Of a DNA stretch of 64,000 nt, positions 4,990-20,300 are shown one piece after another; positions within the stretch are counted from its first letter, which is position 1; each line of letters begins with the position of its first letter. A model generated the notes under the pieces. That model was not told where the DNA came from. It saw nothing but the letters and a program-made list of their open reading frames with translations, and did no database searches. Source of the DNA: Naegleria gruberi (taxonomy: Eukaryota); NCBI GenBank assembly GCA_000004985.1, contig GG738865.1, one strand, 5' to 3'. The translations under genes were made by a program, and so were the position numbers.

Positions 4990-5243
4990 TTTTTAATTAT
5001 GTGAATACAGATATATTACATCACGTTTAAGATTTATTAATTGTAGAGTTTAATAAAACGTGACATCACGGTTCGAGAATTTTTACATTTTGATTAAATT
5101 GTAAACTGCTACAACTGCCTTGGAGCCCATTGTAGGGTATTGTCATTGTAAACTGAAAACGTGAAATCACGTATTGTAAACAGCTATTTAAAGAATCAGA
5201 ATGATTTGATAATTCAGTAATATTCAACAAAAAAAACAACAAA

Positions 5244-6412
5244 ATGTTCAATATTCCAAATAATATTACTGATATTCGTTCTTTGTTTACCTATGCAATC
5301 GGAACACTTTCTATTGGCTCCATTGTCGCAGCTGCATCCCTTTCTTACAAACACTTTTTTACATGGTCCTTGAATAAGCAAGACAAAAATCCAAATGTTT
5401 GTGTGTTGAGGCTTGCTGGTTTAACTCCAAGAAAGCTGGAGATTGTGGACAGAGAAACACAAGTAACCTTGTATATTGCAAATGAAACCAAGGAGATTAG
5501 AATAGTGGACAATTTTAAGGGCTCTCTCTTTTTCAAAGTGTATGGTAAATCTGACATTCCATATATTCATATATTACCAATTCGGTCTATGTCAATACTA
5601 GAGATAGACTTGGTGTTTCTGATAGTTTACTTGAAAAGATTGATGCCAAAATGGAAAAATTGCAATATTTCTCTATTTTATTCACTGGAGGAAAAGGTTG
5701 TGGAAAGAGTATGATGATTGTTTGCTTTATTATGTTCTTCATTGAAATGGGATATGAACTTAAAGTTTCTGAACACAGATCACCAAAGGAGGCATTTGTT
5801 ACAGCAGGAACTGATGATCATGTCACAACAAAATTTCAAGTTGCCAGATTGGAGAAGAAGATCAATAACAAAACTATTGTATTAGAATTGATTGACTCTC
5901 CAGGAATTGAAAAGAGTTACAAGGGTCAACCTTGGTATGGAGACATGAAGGAAACATTCAAGAAAATAATGGATGGTCAAGTGAGAGCCAACTCTTGTGT
6001 TTTCGAAGAAAGAAGGCATACTCTCAATTCAACTAATCCAGATGAAAACATTCCAAAACCAATGTTAGCACTTGTTTGTTCAAACCAAGCATCAGTTGAA
6101 TCTGGAAATGCCAACGATCCATTATTGAACGTCCTGACGAAACAATTACAAAAGAGGGCCTTCTCTGTTTCTACCAAAATTGACCAATCTATGGAAAAGG
6201 ATGATAAGAAAACAACAGTGTTAAAGTTCAATAATGGAAAATTTGAAGAAGTTTTGAATGATATTCGTTGTGTTGGTGATCAGAATGATTTACAATTCTT
6301 TTCACTTACAAAAGAAACCTATTTCAAATTTAAAGATTGTGATGATATTATCAAGTTGCACACTGCCAGATTCATTCACAGTATTCTTGATATGTATAAC
6401 AAAAATTGCTAA
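5244..6412 (+). CDS. Putative membrane-anchored P-loop GTPase; join(5244..5539,5602..6412)
   Basis: N-terminal TM helix, then G1 (FTGGKGCGKS), G3 (DSPG) and G4-like (TKID) motifs. ORFs 5244..5714 and 5651..6412 are joined by a 62-nt GTATGG..TAG intron (5540..5601; an alternative acceptor lies at 5607). Confidence 0.5.
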
Positions 6413-6554
6413 ATGGGATTCCTTTTTTCAATTTTTAAATATTTTGTAAATTATTTTAAAATTTATTAAACATTTATTGTATTTGTTAAATTTTTGGCGC
6501 CAAAAGTGTTTGAGGTTGTATTACAGTTTTTTAAAAAAAATTAAGAAGAAAAAA

Positions 6555-8092
<1,538 letters not shown>

Positions 8093-8396
8093 AAACATCA
8101 TGTTTAAAAATCTTTACAAAAATGTCCAAGCACTTCTTAACAAGTTGATTCATTACTCTTATCAAGTACTCCACTCCAGTAATTCCTTAATTGTCGGCCA
8201 GCTTAGAGGTTCATTTTCAGTGTGTAGATAACCTCCTTTAGATCTGCAGTAGATCTTTGCTCAATAAGGGCATCAGAAATGAGAGAATAAGGAATAAGGA
8301 TGGACTCCTTTATGGACAATTACGAAAAGATCATCTTTGGTTATTTCACATTGTTAATGTGTTGTTATATGAAATTGTGACAAAATTGTTTTTTAT

Positions 8397-9776
8397 TCAA
8401 GCAATAAGCCCTTGACTTTGCTTCCACTTTTGACCGTGAGAAGCTACTTGTGTTCTTGATCGTGTCTTGACATACTTTTCAGCAATGAGTTTCCAATTGT
8501 TACCACATGCCTCAAGACCTTCGAGGAAACGTTGATGTTCTTCCTCTGTCCACCATCCCTTATGACTACCATTCTTATTCTTGGCAGACAAATCACCCTT
8601 CACACTCGACTTGAGTCTCAGCTTACCAATCTTTTGTTTCGAGTAATTGTTAGCAATGTCAACTTCTTCATCGTCACCTTCAGATTCTTCACTTGGTGTC
8701 GTGGTATTTTGTTTGTTTCCTCTCTTAATACATGCAGAAGCAACCTTCTTGAGCACTTCAACATTTGGACATGTTGTTGATGAGACACTGGCAGTTGTTG
8801 TCGTTATGGTTGGATTCTTCTTCTGGAGCTCTTCCTTACTACTACTTGTCATTGTGGTTTCACTACTAGAAACACCACTCGAATGATGATCGTTGAATTG
8901 ACTAGGGGATGATGAATTACTACTTTTCACATCTGTGCCAATAATTGAGACATTGGAAGAATGGGAAAATCCAGATTCATCCATCAATACATTACTATTT
9001 GGAACGTTTCTAACTGGGCTCAATACAGGTGGTGCTGTAGTTGTAGTGGCTGTAATTGTTTTACAGGCAATTGGCACTGCACATGTCACTATCTGCTGAC
9101 TTGTGGCATGATTAAAAGCAACAATTCTTCCAGTAGTTGGGGAGGTATTCAAAAGTGGGTGTTAAAGTGGTGTTAAAGTTGGTGGTGGACTATTCACATG
9201 ATCCACTACTTTAGAGTTGGTTGTAAAATAATTTGGCTTGTTTACAGTACCTTCCCAAATGGAGTTTTCTCGATATAGTTGTTGAGGTGCTTGATGGGTT
9301 GGATAAACGGAGAATAACGAGGAGTAACGATTGCCAACAACGACATGATGACTCGTAGACGATGATGCAACAACAGGCATTATTGATTGGCTTGTGGTGG
9401 TGGAGTGAGAAAGGGATGGGAGTTGTTGTGGATGATGTTGCATCATCTGTGGTGGTTGTGTTGAAGAATAATTATTATTACATGATGAGGATTGACTGGT
9501 AGTAGGAATGGCTGTACAGGAAATGGTATTAGAGAAGGCATGTGTTGGTCTGGTTAACAAATTAGGATAGTTTGGTGTTGTTGTGGTTGCAGGATATATA
9601 TCTGAAAAGAGTGAAGAAATGGAAGGTAATTGAATAGTGGCAGAACTATTAGTACTGCTGCCACTGTCTTTTGTCAAATGATTCATTGGCTGAATGTATT
9701 GTTGTTGTTGTTGGCTTGCACTCATGAGTGGATTGGTGGTCATAGTATTCATTCTTGTCATGTTATCTGCCATCAT
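8397..9776 (-). CDS. Myb-like (SHAQKYF-class) DNA-binding protein. Two in-frame ORFs (9162..9776 S/T/Q-rich N-terminal part; 8397..9152 Myb part) separated by a single TAA (9162..9164)
   Basis: Myb repeat WTEEEHQRFLEGLEACGNNWKLIAEKYVKTRSRTQVASHGQKWKQ near the C-terminus. The upstream 204-aa ATG-initiated low-complexity ORF is in the same frame, only 3 codons from the TTG-initiated Myb ORF. No GT..AG intron spans the stop. Confidence 0.55.
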
Positions 9777-13011: not shown

Positions 13012-13083
13012 TCCCGTGTGGTCCAATGGCTAAGATACCTGGCTCTCACCCAGGAGATCCGGGTTCAATTCCCGGCACGGGAG
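13012..13083 (+). tRNA. tRNA-Glu (anticodon CTC)
   Basis: 72-nt cloverleaf: acceptor TCCCGTG/CACGGGA, D-arm GTCCAATGGCTAAGAT, anticodon stem CCTGG/CCAGG with loop CTCTCAC (anticodon CTC), T-arm GGGTTCAATTCCCGG. Near-identical to canonical eukaryotic tRNA-Glu. Confidence 0.9.
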
Positions 13084-13345: not shown

Positions 13346-14695
13346 ATGTTGGGTCAGTCATCATCTTTAAAAAAAATGGCAACTAAAGTAACCGAAACTC
13401 TTGTTGTGCTTTTGTTGTTATTCTTCGCTACTGCTTCTGGCATTAACGCATCATCACCTGCGGAGCCAGCATTCAAAAGTCAATTACGTTCATGTTTTGA
13501 AGCAAATAGAAATACCGAATGTTTGGCCACACAATCATCTTGGTCTTCATGTGGAGGTTCAGTTTATTCTTCATATCAACTTGCACTCTCCATCTCAATG
13601 AATTGTATGAGAAGTGTCTGTGGAAGTCAAAATAGTTTATGTTGCAATACCTATTGTACAATGTATGGTTTATCTGGATATGATCATTCAGTTTGTTTCA
13701 ATAAGTGTTTCAATGGATATACTGGTTCAGTTGTTGGTGCTGCAACTTTGATGAAAACAATCAAGAGTAGTTTGGATACCAATGTTGATTATGTTCCTCC
13801 TGCCACAGCTCAAAAGAAGGACGATGAAACCAAAGTCTATTGTGATATTCCATGTAATTCAGAATTTGCTTTCTATTCCACAACTGGTAAACAACCAAGT
13901 ATTTTAAATGGTGGTTTGAAGGCATTGTTGGCTTCTAATACCAAGACTAATACTTTGGCTGCTAAGAAAAAGCTCATTTCTTCTTGGTCAACCAAGGTTG
14001 GTTCCTCTAAGCCATCATCCTCATCCTCCTCCTCACGTAAGAGCATCAGCAGCATTAAAAGCATCATTGGAAGAAGTAATAGTGGTTACAACAAGGCCAT
14101 TTCAAAGAGCATCTCAAAATACCTTGGCTTCAAACCAGTTAAACAAATTAATAGTGATCTGGTCTATAAGAGACTTGTTAAATTTGTTTCAAGCATTCCA
14201 AGTCTTGGATACATCTTGAGAGGTATTCGTGATAAGAAAACCAGAACCTACCTTACAAGAGGTTACAAATTCATTCAAGCTGCTAGAAAACAAGTCTATC
14301 CACAAAAAGCATTTGCAATCTATGATGGTAAAGTATTGAATGTGAAAGCCACAGTTCAATTGGGTAATCCAGCATTGGTTAAGCAGAGAAGTACCATTTT
14401 CCCAATTCCATTCAATTCATTGACTCCATCTTCACTTTCAAAGAAATCCTTTTTCAATTCCAGTGTTAAACATAATCAAATCTGTACTGGTACAGCTATT
14501 GCCAAAGTGGAATATTATCGTAGATCTCGTATCACTTGTAAAAAGATCAAGTCATGGATTAGTGGAGCTTCAAAGATTAATCCAAAGAATATTTATCAAG
14601 TCAACAAGTTCCTCTTCCTTGTTTATAATCAATGTAAGAAAGCTAAAGCTACTTGTGTTGTTCCATTTGTTGAAGCAATCAAAACAACTGATTAA
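13346..14695 (+). CDS. Secreted cysteine-rich protein, paralogue 1 of a three-member uncharacterised family (likely start at second Met, 13376: MATKVTETLVVLLLLFFATASG)
   Basis: Signal peptide, then a ~10-Cys N-terminal module (SCFEANRNTEC..SSCGGS..MNCMRSVCGSQNSLCCNTYCTMYGLSGYDHSVCFNKCF). A K/S-rich linker follows. The conserved C-terminal 4-Cys module is QICTGT..YYRRSRITCKKIKSW..NQCKKAKATCVVPF. Confidence 0.7.
   Translation: MLGQSSSLKKMATKVTETLVVLLLLFFATASGINASSPAEPAFKSQLRSCFEANRNTECLATQSSWSSCGGSVYSSYQLALSISMNCMRSVCGSQNSLCCNTYCTMYGLSGYDHSVCFNKCFNGYTGSVVGAATLMKTIKSSLDTNVDYVPPATAQKKDDETKVYCDIPCNSEFAFYSTTGKQPSILNGGLKALLASNTKTNTLAAKKKLISSWSTKVGSSKPSSSSSSSRKSISSIKSIIGRSNSGYNKAISKSISKYLGFKPVKQINSDLVYKRLVKFVSSIPSLGYILRGIRDKKTRTYLTRGYKFIQAARKQVYPQKAFAIYDGKVLNVKATVQLGNPALVKQRSTIFPIPFNSLTPSSLSKKSFFNSSVKHNQICTGTAIAKVEYYRRSRITCKKIKSWISGASKINPKNIYQVNKFLFLVYNQCKKAKATCVVPFVEAIKTTD
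13445..13740. repeat. Left arm of a ~300-bp inverted repeat (partner 16740..17035), about 95% identical
   Basis: The N-terminal ~100 mature residues of paralogues 1 and 3 are identical. Shadow ORFs 13473..13661(-) and 16797..16985(+) differ at 3 of 62 residues. Nucleotide differences I could read are synonymous (e.g. TCACCTGCGGAG vs TCTCCAGCGGAA). Confidence 0.65.
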
Positions 14696-14904
14696 ATTTT
14701 TGTAATTCAATAACTTTTTACAAATATAATATTAATAATATTGAAAAATACTTATTACAATTACAGGTCTGTTACAAAATCTTTTAATGGATAGGAATAG
14801 CATTTTTAAAATACTCGCTCAAACTATATGCAAATTAAACAGTGTACTTTTCACCAAATGTGTATGTGACTCAAAACATCCAACTGTCACACCAGTAAAA
14901 AAAA

Positions 14905-15894
14905 ATGACATTGTCATCCAAACAAATTGTCGTTGTGTTAATTATTGTTGGATTCTGTGTTTCTTACACATTGGCTTCTTCTGCCAGCGAACCAGCATTC
15001 AAAAGTCAATTACGTTCATGTTTTGAAGGAAACAGAAACACAGAATGCATAGTCAATCAAGGAAGCTGGAATTCTTGTGGTCGTTCAGTTTATTCTTCCT
15101 ATCAATTAGCTGTTTCCATTTCAATGAATTGTATGAGAAGTGTTTGTGGTAGTCAAAATGGTTTATGTTGTAATACTTATTGTTCAATGTTTGGTTTATC
15201 TGGAAGTGATCATTCGAATTGTTTCTCCTCATGTTATAATTCATACAGGCCATCGACAAATGGTGGTTCATCTTTTGGTGGAAATATTCCTGCAGCTAGT
15301 GATGCTTTAACTGGTTCTGTATCTTGTTCTATTCCATGCGCTGCTGCTTTCTCCTTCTATGAAAATAAAGTAGCCGAAAGTGTGGCCAAAAAACCAGCAG
15401 AAGTCAAGACATTCAAAACTTTGGTCAAGAATTTACAATCTGGCAAACCAATCAAAAAATCAAATCCTGGCTACACAATCACCTCTGCCAAGACTTTGTC
15501 AACCAGCAGCCCTAGTTCTGCAACCTATTTCACAGCACTTAAACCAAAAGTTGTCCTGAAGGGAAGTGAACATAATCAAGTCTTACGTACCTCTATTGAA
15601 GAAGCTGTTCCAACAAACTTGGACTCGGCTCAATTTTACAATTCTCAAGTGGCATCCAATCAAATTTGTTCCAATTCAATGAAAGATGTTGTAAAGGTTT
15701 CAATTTTGAAGAATACCAAAATTGAATGTTCTAAATTGTTGCAATGGATTAAGAATGATAAGACAATTGCTCCTGAAAATTTGGAAAATGTTTATAATTT
15801 CATGTTGGTTTTGCATCAAAAGTGTTCTGCTTTGCCAAATAGTAAATGTGTCATGCCAAATGTTGGATCCATCAAGCTCACTAACACTAAATAA
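14905..15894 (+). CDS. Secreted cysteine-rich protein, paralogue 2 (more divergent)
   Basis: Signal peptide (MTLSSKQIVVVLIIVGFCVSYTLASSA). Same N-terminal Cys module (SCFEGNRNTEC..CGSQNGLCCNTYCSMFGLSGSDHSNCFSSC) and C-terminal module (QICSNS..IECSKLLQW..HQKCSALPNSKCVMP). Confidence 0.7.
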   Translation: MTLSSKQIVVVLIIVGFCVSYTLASSASEPAFKSQLRSCFEGNRNTECIVNQGSWNSCGRSVYSSYQLAVSISMNCMRSVCGSQNGLCCNTYCSMFGLSGSDHSNCFSSCYNSYRPSTNGGSSFGGNIPAASDALTGSVSCSIPCAAAFSFYENKVAESVAKKPAEVKTFKTLVKNLQSGKPIKKSNPGYTITSAKTLSTSSPSSATYFTALKPKVVLKGSEHNQVLRTSIEEAVPTNLDSAQFYNSQVASNQICSNSMKDVVKVSILKNTKIECSKLLQWIKNDKTIAPENLENVYNFMLVLHQKCSALPNSKCVMPNVGSIKLTNTK

Positions 15895-15969
15895 ATTGTG
15901 GATCTATCAATTAATAACTAATTTTTATTAGAAAGCACCCAAATCATAAATTTCCAAAATAAAATTATT

Positions 15970-17124
15970 TTAAAGAGTGTCAGTATTCAAATTAATTCTT
16001 CTAAACATTGGAACAACACATTGTTTAGACTTCTTTGGAATGAGAGATCTACACTTATTATGAACAATCATCATGAATTTGTAAACAGTAAGCAAATTAT
16101 TTGGTGAAATTTCTGAAACTTCCTTCATCCAACGTTGAATCTTGTTACAATTTACTCTAGATCTCTTATAATAGGTAACTTCAACTGTCTTTCCAGTATT
16201 GGCACAGATTTGATTTTTACCAACTTGGCTGCTTTTCAAAACGGGATTCAAAGGGACAACCTTATCAAGTGAAATGTCAAAAACTTGAAGTCTGTCACGA
16301 GTTACTTGAATAACATTGGAAATCATCTTTTTATCAGTTTTTCCTGATGATTTAGAGGTTGATTTAGTGACCTTTCCATTCTTAATAGTTGTGAGTTTAG
16401 TTTTTTTCACAAAAGACGAAATGAAAAGTTTCTTCTTTTTGCCCAATACTGAAACTCCACCATTTCCACTTGCTGTTCCAGTAGTACTATTTGAACCATT
16501 AATTTGAGAAAGGAGAGTTCTCAAGAAATTTCTTTCCTTTCTTGTTGGTTGTTCATTGGCAAAATAAAAAGCATAAGTAGCATCACATGAAACAGAACAT
16601 TTGACAATGGCTTTATCATCAGTGGTGGCACTTTTTGGAACAAAGTCAGAGTTATCATCGAATGGGATGGAAGCATAAGCAATAGAAGTAGAAATTGGTT
16701 TCATCAAAGTTGCAGCAGCAGAAACAACTGAACCAGTATATCCATTGAAACACTTATTGAAACAAACTGAATGATCATATCCAGATAAACCATACATTGT
16801 ACAATAAGTATTGCAACATAAACTATTTTGACTTCCACAAACACTTCTCATACAATTCATTGAAATGGAGAGTGCAAGTTGATATGAAGAATAAACTGAA
16901 CCTCCACATGAAGACCAAGATGATTGTGTGGCTAAACATTCGGTATTTCTATTTGCTTCAAAACATGAACGTAATTGACTTTTGAATGCTGGTTCCGCTG
17001 GAGATGATGCATTGACAAAAGATGAAGATGTGAGAAGGGCTGCCAACAAGACGAAACATGCCAAAACTAGTGGATTGAATCTTGTCATTATTTTTTTTAA
17101 GCTTTCTTCAAAGATGTCACCCAC
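15970..17124 (-). CDS. Secreted cysteine-rich protein, paralogue 3 (inverted orientation; likely start MTRFNPLVLACFVLLAALL at ~17086)
   Basis: N-terminal module identical to paralogue 1 over ~100 aa, then diverged. C-terminal module QICANTGKTVEVTYYKRSRVNCNKIQRW..HNKCRSLIPKKSKQCVVPMF. Confidence 0.7.
   Translation of the reverse strand: MGDIFEESLKKIMTRFNPLVLACFVLLAALLTSSSFVNASSPAEPAFKSQLRSCFEANRNTECLATQSSWSSCGGSVYSSYQLALSISMNCMRSVCGSQNSLCCNTYCTMYGLSGYDHSVCFNKCFNGYTGSVVSAAATLMKPISTSIAYASIPFDDNSDFVPKSATTDDKAIVKCSVSCDATYAFYFANEQPTRKERNFLRTLLSQINGSNSTTGTASGNGGVSVLGKKKKLFISSFVKKTKLTTIKNGKVTKSTSKSSGKTDKKMISNVIQVTRDRLQVFDISLDKVVPLNPVLKSSQVGKNQICANTGKTVEVTYYKRSRVNCNKIQRWMKEVSEISPNNLLTVYKFMMIVHNKCRSLIPKKSKQCVVPMFRRINLNTDTL
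16740..17035. repeat. Right arm of the ~300-bp inverted repeat (partner 13445..13740)
   Basis: See the left-arm entry. The arms are separated by ~3 kb containing paralogue 2. Confidence 0.65.
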
Positions 17125-17305: not shown

Positions 17306-20300
17306 ATGAGTAAAAACATATGGTTGCCGCCACTTTCGCTATCATCTCTGCAGAGAAATGATGGGAAGAACATCATGTTTGACACTCAGAAAGTAATCAA
17401 GCCGACCACCTGGTTGTATATAATGATGATACTGCTGATATTGTTAATGAATAGTGGAGGAGTTGTGAGATGTGGAAATGTTGTGGAAGTGGATGCTGAG
17501 GAAGTGAGGCAGTTGGATTTATATTTGAAAAAATCAAAACCTGATTTGGAAAATTCTCAGCTAGCTTTATTGGCATTTAAGGAGACGAGTCAAATGCTTA
17601 TACTCACCAAGACATTGTCATCCTTGTCCATCACACCAAGAACAATATTTTACTCTGCAGGGTTTATCGGAAATACTATTGTTCAATTGAATGCAAGTGA
17701 AATCAAATTCACCTCCTTGGCTAATGTATTTAACAATTCAACAAGACCATACAAAGTTGTTGATAGGCTTACATCATTATGCTCTTCTACTCTTTCTCAA
17801 TTATATCAGAACAACACCTTTATTCCAAATTATTATATTTGTTTTTTCAAAACAACACTCACATCAGAGAATAGAGTTTTCTTCTCAACAACAAGTGAAG
17901 GATTCAGATGTTTAAAACTAAATTCGGATGGGGATGTAATAACCAAGGATGTTTCTAAGGGATTTATTGAAGATTTTGCTACCTCATTATGTGTTATAAC
18001 CATAATATTTATAGCCCTTCTGTGGGTACAAGGATCATTTAAAAGGAGAATTATTGATACAAAGAGATATCCCTTTACCAATTATTACTTTGGAAACGAT
18101 ACTGATTGGAACTCTTCAACTTTTTCGGATCTTTCAGTAACTCTTAGACCAATATTTCCATTCTTTAAACATTTTTCCAATCAGTTTGACAAGCTTTATA
18201 AACTGATATTCAGATCAATTCAAAACAAAGTGGACCAGGAACATATTAGGAAGTATAAGAAATTTGGCTCTTCAACACTGCTGAAATACCAATTATTCTT
18301 CGACTTTTTCCTCTTTATAGTTATTAGTTGCTTATCAATGGTGCAGTTATTTGTTCCTTCTGTACTATATTTCCCAAATTTTATTCAAATACCTATTAAT
18401 TTTGACCTTGGGAATGACGAAACCTTCACAAGTTATTGGATAGGAGGGGCTGATTTTGTACCTATCAGTTTGGGTTTTTGGTTAATATCCCTCACTTTGA
18501 TGATATTGGGAATAATTTTGTTAATAGTTACTTCTAGTTCAAAAGAAAAGATGATGTATTGGAGCACAAACTCTTTGCCAGACACCAACATTTTGGTTTT
18601 CACTGATGCAATCTTCAAAATTATTTTCATAGTCTTGATTAATGTGATAATCATTTTACTACCGTTCTGGACATTTACCATTAAGGGAGTTCTTATGGTG
18701 GTTATTACAATAGCATCTATTTTCTATGGGAGTCAACAAATTTTAATTCCAACAGAGAAGGTTATTCACGCTATTCATGATGGAAATTATAAGATGGTTG
18801 TTGCCTTCTTGATGTTTGCATATTTTAAGGAACTTCTAGTGATCATACCATTTTTTATTCAGATATTCATGGTGGCCGAAACTATATTTGGGCTAGTTTG
18901 GAGCTTGATTCTTTCCTTTGTTGCAAACAACAGCAAGCTTTCCTTGATTGGTATTTTTGGTATTGTAATTAATTCTGCAACAAGTTTACTTCAAGACTTA
19001 CTACAGCCATCCAGAGTTACCAGGAAAAAGATTGTGGAAAGGTCAGATACATTCGTTTTTCCCTCTCTAACAAAGACCAGCACACAATTCATCCTTGATA
19101 ATGTCGCTGCAAAATATGGTGGCATTATTAATACCTACTCTAAACTGGTAGAAAGTAATGAGATGGTGGATTATACATACAAGGATATTCTCTCATTAAA
19201 TGACAACTTGGAAGAACTTAAGGACATTACAAGAAAAAGAAGTCAGTCTGTTGGAAAATCTGAAAACGGTGAAGCTAAGCTAGCAGCAACAACTATTGAA
19301 AAAATTCACAACCCTGTTAACATCAAATTCGAAAAAAATGAAGACAAAAACGAAGAGGAGCTAAAAACAAGATATACGGAGATCAATGATAGGCCAAAGT
19401 ACATGCATGTTCTCTTCAAGAAAGAAATTGCCTTACTCGTTAGAGGCATCTTCCTTTCAACGCAAGAGAAGAAAAATGAAAAATTGAGAGTAATCTTTAA
19501 GAGAGGAGAGAGGCTTTATACTCCATTGTTGAATACAGACATCAGAAGAATCCATCACAATTTAGTGGGTAGAGTCAAGATAGCAACAGGAAATCTGAGT
19601 AATTATTTAGTAGTAATTTTGATTGCAATGATTATTTTCTTGTCTTTTACTTATTCTGGTGCTGAAAGTGATGGTATGGACATTATGTCAAATATGGCTA
19701 TTGTTATTTCAATCTTTATTCCACAACTTTTTGGAAGATTGGATGAAGGACAAGTTGATGAACTATTCGAAAGAAGAATTGAGGAAACTATCCTTTTAAC
19801 CAAGAGAGATCTTGCAAAGAAACTTGACTTACCAGAGAAGGATCTCAATTTTTGCATTTTCAATTTTCAAAACGATTCAGATATTAGTAACTTTTTAGAG
19901 CACAACACCCCAGCAGTGTCTGAAACTATTGGAAGAAAAATGTAAGTATATTTTAACGAATTGTTTTACTTGAATCAAATGAAAGATTGGAACATTGGGA
20001 AAGTGCTTCAACAAATGGATTTATTACAGCTCAAAAATTCAAGCCACTCATGCTTATTGTATGGGATGAAACCCTTAAAATCAATGCAAAGAAGGGCACT
20101 GCTTCCGCTACAAATGACTATCTCAAGACTCATAGCCAATTCTTGACATCATTTTCAAACATAATTTATTGTATTAGTAATTTTGAGGCTGACTCCTTTG
20201 TGAGTGCTTACGAATTCATTCACGCTGTGGAGCTTCTCAAAAAATCAATCACAAGAAAGGAAGAAGATCAATGCTCAGATATGGATATAACATTTGCATT

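Follow-up and report, generated by a model that had tools for sequence, protein, structure and literature searches.

Several described systems resemble, each in part, the genes reported here. The 'dae' amidases are domesticated eukaryotic genes that were taken from bacterial type VI effectors. Saposin-like proteins (SAPLIPs, among them the naegleriapores and amoebapores) and plant non-specific lipid-transfer proteins (nsLTPs) share with the domain described below a small, secreted, all-alpha form with 3–5 disulfides, one of which involves a CC pair. In enteric E. coli, CexE and Aap are small Sec-exported proteins whose first residue, a glycine, is N-acylated by the Lnt-family enzyme AatD (PMC7943197, PMC7478709). 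Here we describe a cluster of three adjacent genes, A, B and C, within a 64,000-nucleotide stretch of Naegleria gruberi DNA (contig GG738865.1; hereafter the window). Each gene encodes a cysteine-rich N-terminal module (N-module), a linker, and a second cysteine-rich module at the C-terminus (C-module). With moderate confidence, we interpret the three products as evolutionary chimeras, with an N-module from a bacterial family as the head and a tail seen only in Naegleria, that would work as binding proteins.

When 1.84 billion representative proteins were scanned exhaustively with HMMER, only five matches were returned, namely the N. lovaniensis protein C9374_014248 (P0006), which has both an N- and a C-module, and four short proteins with the N-module only. 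Further searches, including word-indexed ones, added about ten more proteins of ~115 amino acids (aa). HMMER E-values of the N-module to bacterial proteins range from 1e-21 to 1e-45. The named hosts are Acidovorax lacteus JCM 31890 (WP_345063684), Acidovorax sp. DW039 (BEU95835), and an Acidovorax metagenome-assembled genome (MBP8140968). Other Acidovorax-type members come from metagenomic contigs of 60–67% GC, which also carry LIV-type ABC transporter and GGDEF genes, and two more distant members lie on bacterial contigs of 45–48% GC. Outside the N-module, the 1.84-billion-protein scan matched P0006 only, in two stretches.

Across the 87 aligned columns of the core, N. gruberi N-modules and Acidovorax-type proteins share 58–76% identity, which falls within the range that the latter show among themselves (58–97%); the bacterial sequences overall span 35–97% identity, with P0005 intermediate. 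The first homologous residue directly follows the predicted cleavage site of the signal peptide (between A and SSPAEPAFKSQLRSCFE), and the last is the final cysteine of the module. Homology extends over the whole length of the N-module, with a common cysteine framework, C-x36-C-x4-C-x6-CC-x3-C-x12-C-x3-C, and the Naegleria N-modules conform to the family pattern of a signal peptide followed by EP.F..QL..CFE...C.R..C...CC[NT]T[YF]...C in a core of ~85 aa. Mature bacterial proteins are ~92 residues long and stand alone, consisting of an N-module only, exported by a bacterial-type signal peptide, with 6 or 8 cysteines. In contrast, the Naegleria proteins have an extra cysteine pair, a CxxxC motif, a long basic linker, and a four-cysteine C-module, and their genes have no Lnt neighbor.

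These homologs bear directly on whether the cluster could be an orphan family without relatives beyond Naegleria. Such a reading agrees with the linker and C-module, for which relatives were found in Naegleria only, and with the failure of any named family to match, but for the N-module it is refuted by the E-values and identities above, and overall we consider it very improbable. The lineage specificity proposed in the initial annotation therefore fails for the N-module. Since the bacterial relatives are themselves uncharacterized "hypothetical proteins," no significant match to a CHARACTERISED domain family was obtained.

The high identity to Acidovorax proteins could also arise if the bacterial-like segment were contamination or an assembly artifact, which is scarcely conceivable here given that the genes lie within an 820-kb eukaryotic contig of 34% GC, that the reading frame of the N-module continues into sequence seen only in Naegleria, and that the same arrangement recurs on an independently obtained metagenome contig of a related strain. 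In addition, GC content at third codon positions (GC3) in the N-module is 16–21% in N. gruberi vs. 70–81% in the Acidovorax genes. We take this low GC3 to exclude contamination and to indicate a transfer old enough for complete amelioration. N-module GC3 is also lower than that of the rest of the same genes (24–31%) and of neighboring genes (25–36%), a difference that may reflect codon bias.

The three N. gruberi proteins align over their full length with 43–55% identity, and HMMER E-values among them (1e-56 to 1e-242) place the similarity far beyond chance, in agreement with the paralogy proposed in the initial annotation, whose three adjacent genes (+, +, −) were likewise confirmed as open reading frames (ORFs). 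In order, each product comprises a signal-peptide-like segment, the N-module (~90 aa, 10 cysteines, near-invariant among the paralogs), a short spacer, a CxxxC...FY motif, a linker rich in Lys, Ser, and Thr that is highly variable in length, and the C-module (~75 aa, with four cysteines invariant in all three). Mature proteins have 16 cysteines each (10 in the N-module, 2 in CxxxC, and 4 in the C-module) and are strongly basic, with isoelectric points (pI) of 9.1–9.9. The 10-cysteine and 4-cysteine modules had been described correctly before, although the conserved CxxxC...FY pair was missing from that description; the motif was seen only in Naegleria, N. lovaniensis included.

As had been proposed, the proteins look secreted. 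All three begin with a hydrophobic stretch (Kyte-Doolittle >2.6 over 15 aa) that has a cleavage-site-like ending, INA, TLA, or VNA, directly before SSPAEP, and on this basis they are probably exported. Hydropathy plots contain no C-terminal hydrophobic segment in A, B, or C, and thus no sign of a glycosylphosphatidylinositol anchor or transmembrane helix. The family is locally amplified, as suggested earlier, and database searches identified no N. gruberi members beyond these three. The organism is the heterolobosean amoeboflagellate N. gruberi and neither a dictyostelid nor an amoebozoan.

Searches against protein families and structures agree with the earlier view that the family is unnamed. 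No Pfam match was found for the three whole proteins at E ≤ 0.1, and at E ≤ 10 the members of the N- and C-module sets yielded isolated chance-level matches only. NCBIfam gave no match, and a sequence-profile search of the PDB with three alignments gave chance matches only (E > 0.3). From a 14-sequence alignment, AlphaFold2 gave an all-alpha N-module model with six helices and a predicted local distance difference test score (pLDDT) of ~86 over core residues 4–90; it had no fold match among the known structures searched. The N-module is thus confidently modeled as a disulfide-locked helical bundle without a known structural relative. In gene A numbering, the bacterial subtype with 6 Cys has neither C104 nor C117, which thus disappear jointly, and C59 and C69 are found, within the family, only in N. 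gruberi. The disulfide pairs predicted are C59–C69 and C104–C117.

Membership in several known cysteine-rich families was considered and rejected. The cysteine spacing of the N-module does not fit the saposin pattern, and there is no Pfam hit. For the nsLTP or eight-cysteine group, CC is present but CXC is not, the spacing differs from C..C..CC..CxC..C..C, and neither Pfam nor fold searches gave a match. The antistasin-like cysteine-rich Naegleria proteins presented in PMC12482156 are a different family. The C-module is unrelated to the N-module, as descent of the former from a copy of the latter was rejected at an hhalign probability of 0.2%.

The genomic surroundings of the bacterial genes offer clues to the ancestral role of the N-module. 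An Lnt paralog with LNT_N and CN_hydrolase domains is reported downstream of the cysteine-rich gene at 13 of 13 bacterial loci; contig L011 ends before the Lnt position. Its motifs WPE, K..LVPF.E, and LCFE, which we take to be the catalytic E-K-C triad, are all kept, and the enzyme is predicted from them to be catalytically intact. At the 11 high-GC loci, the Lnt paralog follows about 20–30 bp after the cysteine-rich gene, which is itself preceded by a gene for a ~300-aa lipobox protein. The Acidovorax cassette accordingly has three genes (lipobox protein, 115-aa cysteine-rich secreted protein, and Lnt paralog) with gaps of 20–30 bp. The two small proteins of the lower-GC cassette (137–141 and 196–218 aa) are 33–38% identical to each other, and in L010 their genes stand between the cysteine-rich gene and the Lnt paralog. 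No Pfam or NCBIfam family was found for the partner proteins, i.e., the lipobox protein and the small secreted proteins. The cassette may be a new envelope or protein-lipidation system.

This arrangement recalls CexE/AatD, in that the bacterial relatives combine a small Sec-exported protein, a type-I signal-peptidase site, a conserved mature N-terminus, and an adjoining Lnt-family acyltransferase. However, the sequences show no similarity to CexE or Aap, nearly all members begin their mature form with Ser-Ser instead of Gly, and the bacterial contigs carry no visible AatPABC transporter genes. The Naegleria genes differ further in having no acyltransferase partner, as no Lnt paralog is present in the window or at the N. 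lovaniensis locus. By these comparisons the resemblance is one of analogy, not of membership. Co-transfer of other cassette genes was also considered and rejected, with neither the lipoprotein nor the Lnt gene present in the window, as was derivation of the linker or C-module from another cassette gene, for which tblastn returned nothing below E = 0.6.

A second Naegleria species provides a further point of comparison. Like its N. gruberi counterparts, the N. lovaniensis gene encodes the CxxxC motif and the C-module; its N-module is interrupted after residue 99 by a 115-nt intron, and it lies ~6 kb from tubulin-tyrosine ligase (TTL) and Myb genes that match those in the window. The TTL/Myb pair (window 6650–8717; L012:1296–3241) is inverted relative to the cysteine-rich gene and the intervening genes differ; the common neighbors nonetheless indicate that the loci in the two species are positionally related. 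The N-modules of N. gruberi and N. lovaniensis are only 42–43% identical, and the closest sequence to the latter is P0007 from the lower-GC bacteria (50%). Neighbor-joining (NJ) trees separate N. lovaniensis, P0007, and P0009 from all others with 99.7% bootstrap and unite N. gruberi with the Acidovorax type with 88%, while Naegleria monophyly receives 0%. Forcing that monophyly costs 13–14 extra parsimony steps (Templeton p = 0.001–0.005). Taken together, the tree, the synteny, and the common tail require one of three histories: two or more inter-domain events, a single event plus N-module replacement, or ancient paralogy with differential loss.

As to direction, we infer that transfer from bacterium to amoeba is most likely, because the Lnt linkage is kept in both bacterial clades and because bacterial diversity is deeper. 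The reverse would require that a native Naegleria or heterolobosean N-module was captured by amoeba-associated or amoeba-eaten bacteria, the donor being a gruberi-like amoeba for Acidovorax and a lovaniensis-like amoeba for the lower-GC bacteria. Host-to-bacterium capture would also make the N-modules of the two Naegleria species group with separate bacterial clades, as they do, and the N. lovaniensis spliceosomal intron, together with synteny, suggests a long-standing presence in Naegleria. Bacterial members are also extremely rare, with one locus among 185,579 species-representative genomes for the search pattern used (the JGI metagenome collection added two more), and transfer from host to Legionella is documented, as cited in PMC12482156. 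On the other hand, two such captures would each need to land beside an Lnt paralog, and the bacterial proteins consist of the N-module only, behind a bacterial-type signal peptide. Bacterial sequences also include the intermediate P0005, and neither the 1.84-billion-protein scan nor the word-indexed search found the N-module in any eukaryote other than Naegleria. We therefore regard transfer from amoeba to bacteria as rather unlikely. With respect to a viral vector, no relatives of the N-module or C-module were found among IMG/VR viral contigs.

Within N. gruberi, the cluster arose through local duplication, and its later history is recorded in a long inverted repeat (Table 1). For identical residues in the A/C pair, the same codon is used in 93% of cases inside the repeat vs. 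17–79% elsewhere, and outside the N-module proteins A and C are only 24–50% identical. Gene conversion, confined to the N-module, thus homogenizes A and C. Evidence of selection comes from a second, closely related strain, represented by an environmental metagenome contig (L013) that aligns to window positions 14434–16486 with 97.9% identity and has the same arrangement (end of A, B, end of C). The two strains diverge by 5.7–6.7% in the two intergenic spacers vs. 1.7–1.9% in coding sequence. Every change within the N- and C-modules is synonymous; amino-acid changes are found only in the signal peptide, linker, and extreme C-terminus, and the single coding indel is in frame. Both modules are under purifying selection.

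In our explanation, the N-module, which belongs to a rare bacterial family, crossed between bacteria and Naegleria, most likely from a prey bacterium to the amoeba, where it now precedes the CxxxC motif, a disordered Lys/Ser-rich linker, and the 4-Cys C-module. Local duplication gave the three genes, and gene conversion keeps the inverted copies A and C near-identical in the N-module. In our working mechanism, the protein would act outside the cell as a binding protein, the N-module serving as putative ligand-binding head and the basic linker and C-module supplying attachment or multivalency. A lipid or bacterial-envelope component is proposed as the ligand because the bacterial ancestor is linked to an Lnt paralog and a lipoprotein.

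The main functional rival is that the products are structural proteins of the extracellular matrix or cyst wall, in which the end domains cross-link, the linker is a spacer or glycosylation region, and bacterial ancestry is irrelevant to function. Disulfide-rich ends and a variable S/K/T linker are typical of wall and matrix proteins, and the signal peptide, 16 cysteines, high pI, and variable, low-complexity S/K/T-rich linker of the present proteins, with the linker evolving fast and the end domains conserved, would all suit this role. We nevertheless judge it unlikely, as Pfam gave no hit, domains that bind chitin or cellulose are absent, and no homolog was found in N. fowleri or other cyst-forming heteroloboseans by the 1.84-billion-protein scan or the word-indexed search.

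In the present genes, as with the 'dae' amidases, a bacterivorous eukaryote encodes a domain of a bacterial secreted protein; the domain follows a eukaryotic signal peptide, is fully ameliorated, and evolves under purifying selection. The present case differs from the amidases in that the bacterial donor family has no known enzymatic or toxic activity and in that the domain is fused here to a eukaryote-specific tail. A bolder proposal, which we consider improbable, is that the bacterial cysteine-rich protein would be a dedicated substrate or partner of the Lnt paralog, representing a second, unrelated class of non-cysteine N-acylated envelope protein analogous to CexE/AatD, and that Naegleria captured the domain at least twice from prey and now secretes it, with a basic tail attached, as a factor recognizing or attacking bacterial envelopes. 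If true, protists would have a counterpart of the bacterial antagonism genes domesticated elsewhere.

Several points weigh against the chimeric binding-protein explanation. Without an Lnt gene in the window, the role of the bacterial partnership may be irrelevant in the amoeba. The phylogeny has a small basis, with trees of 87 columns built by NJ and parsimony and bootstrap support obtained by counting bipartitions. A position of N. gruberi inside the Acidovorax clade is poorly separated from a sister position (48% vs. 22% bootstrap; Templeton p = 0.45), and long-branch attraction may have had some influence on the divergent N. lovaniensis sequence. In mechanistic terms, it is awkward to suppose that a second acquisition joined the same C-terminal tail. 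For the C-module, AlphaFold modeling from 5 sequences gave a pLDDT of 44, which is too low to use. Finally, genes A–C are unmentioned in the literature searched by accession, by Naegleria secretome or cysteine-rich proteins, and by transfer between Naegleria and Comamonadaceae.

The positions of all features are collected in Table 1. Genes A, B, and C are exact matches to N. gruberi predicted proteins on the nuclear 820-kb contig and contain no introns. GC content of the window averages about 34% (31–39% across 2-kb windows), and the neighbors are ordinary eukaryotic genes, including those for an F-box protein, TTL, and EIPR1. A tRNA-Glu(CTC) gene at 13012–13083 (+), detected by ARAGORN and Rfam, lies 260 bp upstream of gene A. 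Adjoining gene C is an 879-aa ORF (17306–19945, +) with many hydrophobic segments and no Pfam hit. Gene B is labeled "nucleoporin" in NCBI/UniProt. Nucleoporins have phenylalanine-glycine (FG) repeats or a known Nup domain, are cytoplasmic or nuclear, and lack a signal peptide. With a signal-peptide-like N-terminus, 16 mature cysteines, no FG repeats, and no Nup Pfam domain, the product of gene B does not have this identity, and the name therefore looks like an annotation error.

Table 1. Features of the N. gruberi cluster and of related loci. Positions without a prefix are those of the window; a prefix (L001, etc.) denotes another contig.
Feature	Position	Strand	Remarks
Gene A	13346-14695	+	ORF 449 aa; NAEGRDRAFT_67035, XP_002677700; NCBI model ATG at 13376
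Gene B	14905-15894	+	ORF 329 aa; XP_002677701; shortest linker, otherwise gene A architecture
Gene C	15970-17124	-	ORF 384 aa; NAEGRDRAFT_48735, XP_002677800; NCBI model ATG at 17088
N-module, gene A	13451-13720	+	Mature N-terminus SSPAEPAFKSQLRSCFE to CFNKCFNGY; 10 Cys; homologous to bacterial ~115-aa proteins
N-module, gene B	14977-15246	+	76% identical to bacterial P0010
N-module, gene C	16738-17007	-	Sequence used for AlphaFold2 model
CxxxC...FY motif, gene A	13841-13876	+	
CxxxC...FY motif, gene B	15325-15360	+	
CxxxC...FY motif, gene C	16564-16599	-	
C-module, gene A	14474-14692	+	NQIC...C.KI..W...C...CVVP, 4 Cys
C-module, gene B	15658-15891	+	
C-module, gene C	15973-16215	-	
Inverted repeat, left arm	13445-13743		299 nt, 97% complementary to 16715-17013
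Inverted repeat, right arm	16715-17013		Pairs with 13445-13743
N. lovaniensis homolog C9374_014248 (P0006)	L012:10001-11186		PYSW02000081.1
Acidovorax three-gene cassette	L001:5294-8175; L002:~5100-7970		Also L003, L004, L006, L008, L014
Lower-GC (45-48%) cassette	L010:340-3471; L011:152-1581		Cys-rich protein, then two small secreted paralogs

Its practical importance will stay limited for as long as no function is established, but the analysis defines two uncharacterized protein domains, one of them, the N-module, with a confident model of a disulfide-locked helical fold. It also brings to light a conserved and unannotated bacterial cassette of lipoprotein, small cysteine-rich protein, and Lnt paralog. 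The case is an unusually clean one of gene sharing between domains of life, in which 58–76% identity persists despite complete codon re-adaptation; the domain is also joined to eukaryote-specific sequence, present in several copies, and homogenized by gene conversion. That the syntenic N-modules of two Naegleria species group with different bacterial clades is an evolutionary puzzle, for which the candidate solutions are recurrent capture, replacement of the domain, and undetected paralogs. The family has not been described before, and its history is unusual: a domain common to bacteria and a eukaryote, set within a secreted cysteine-rich protein.

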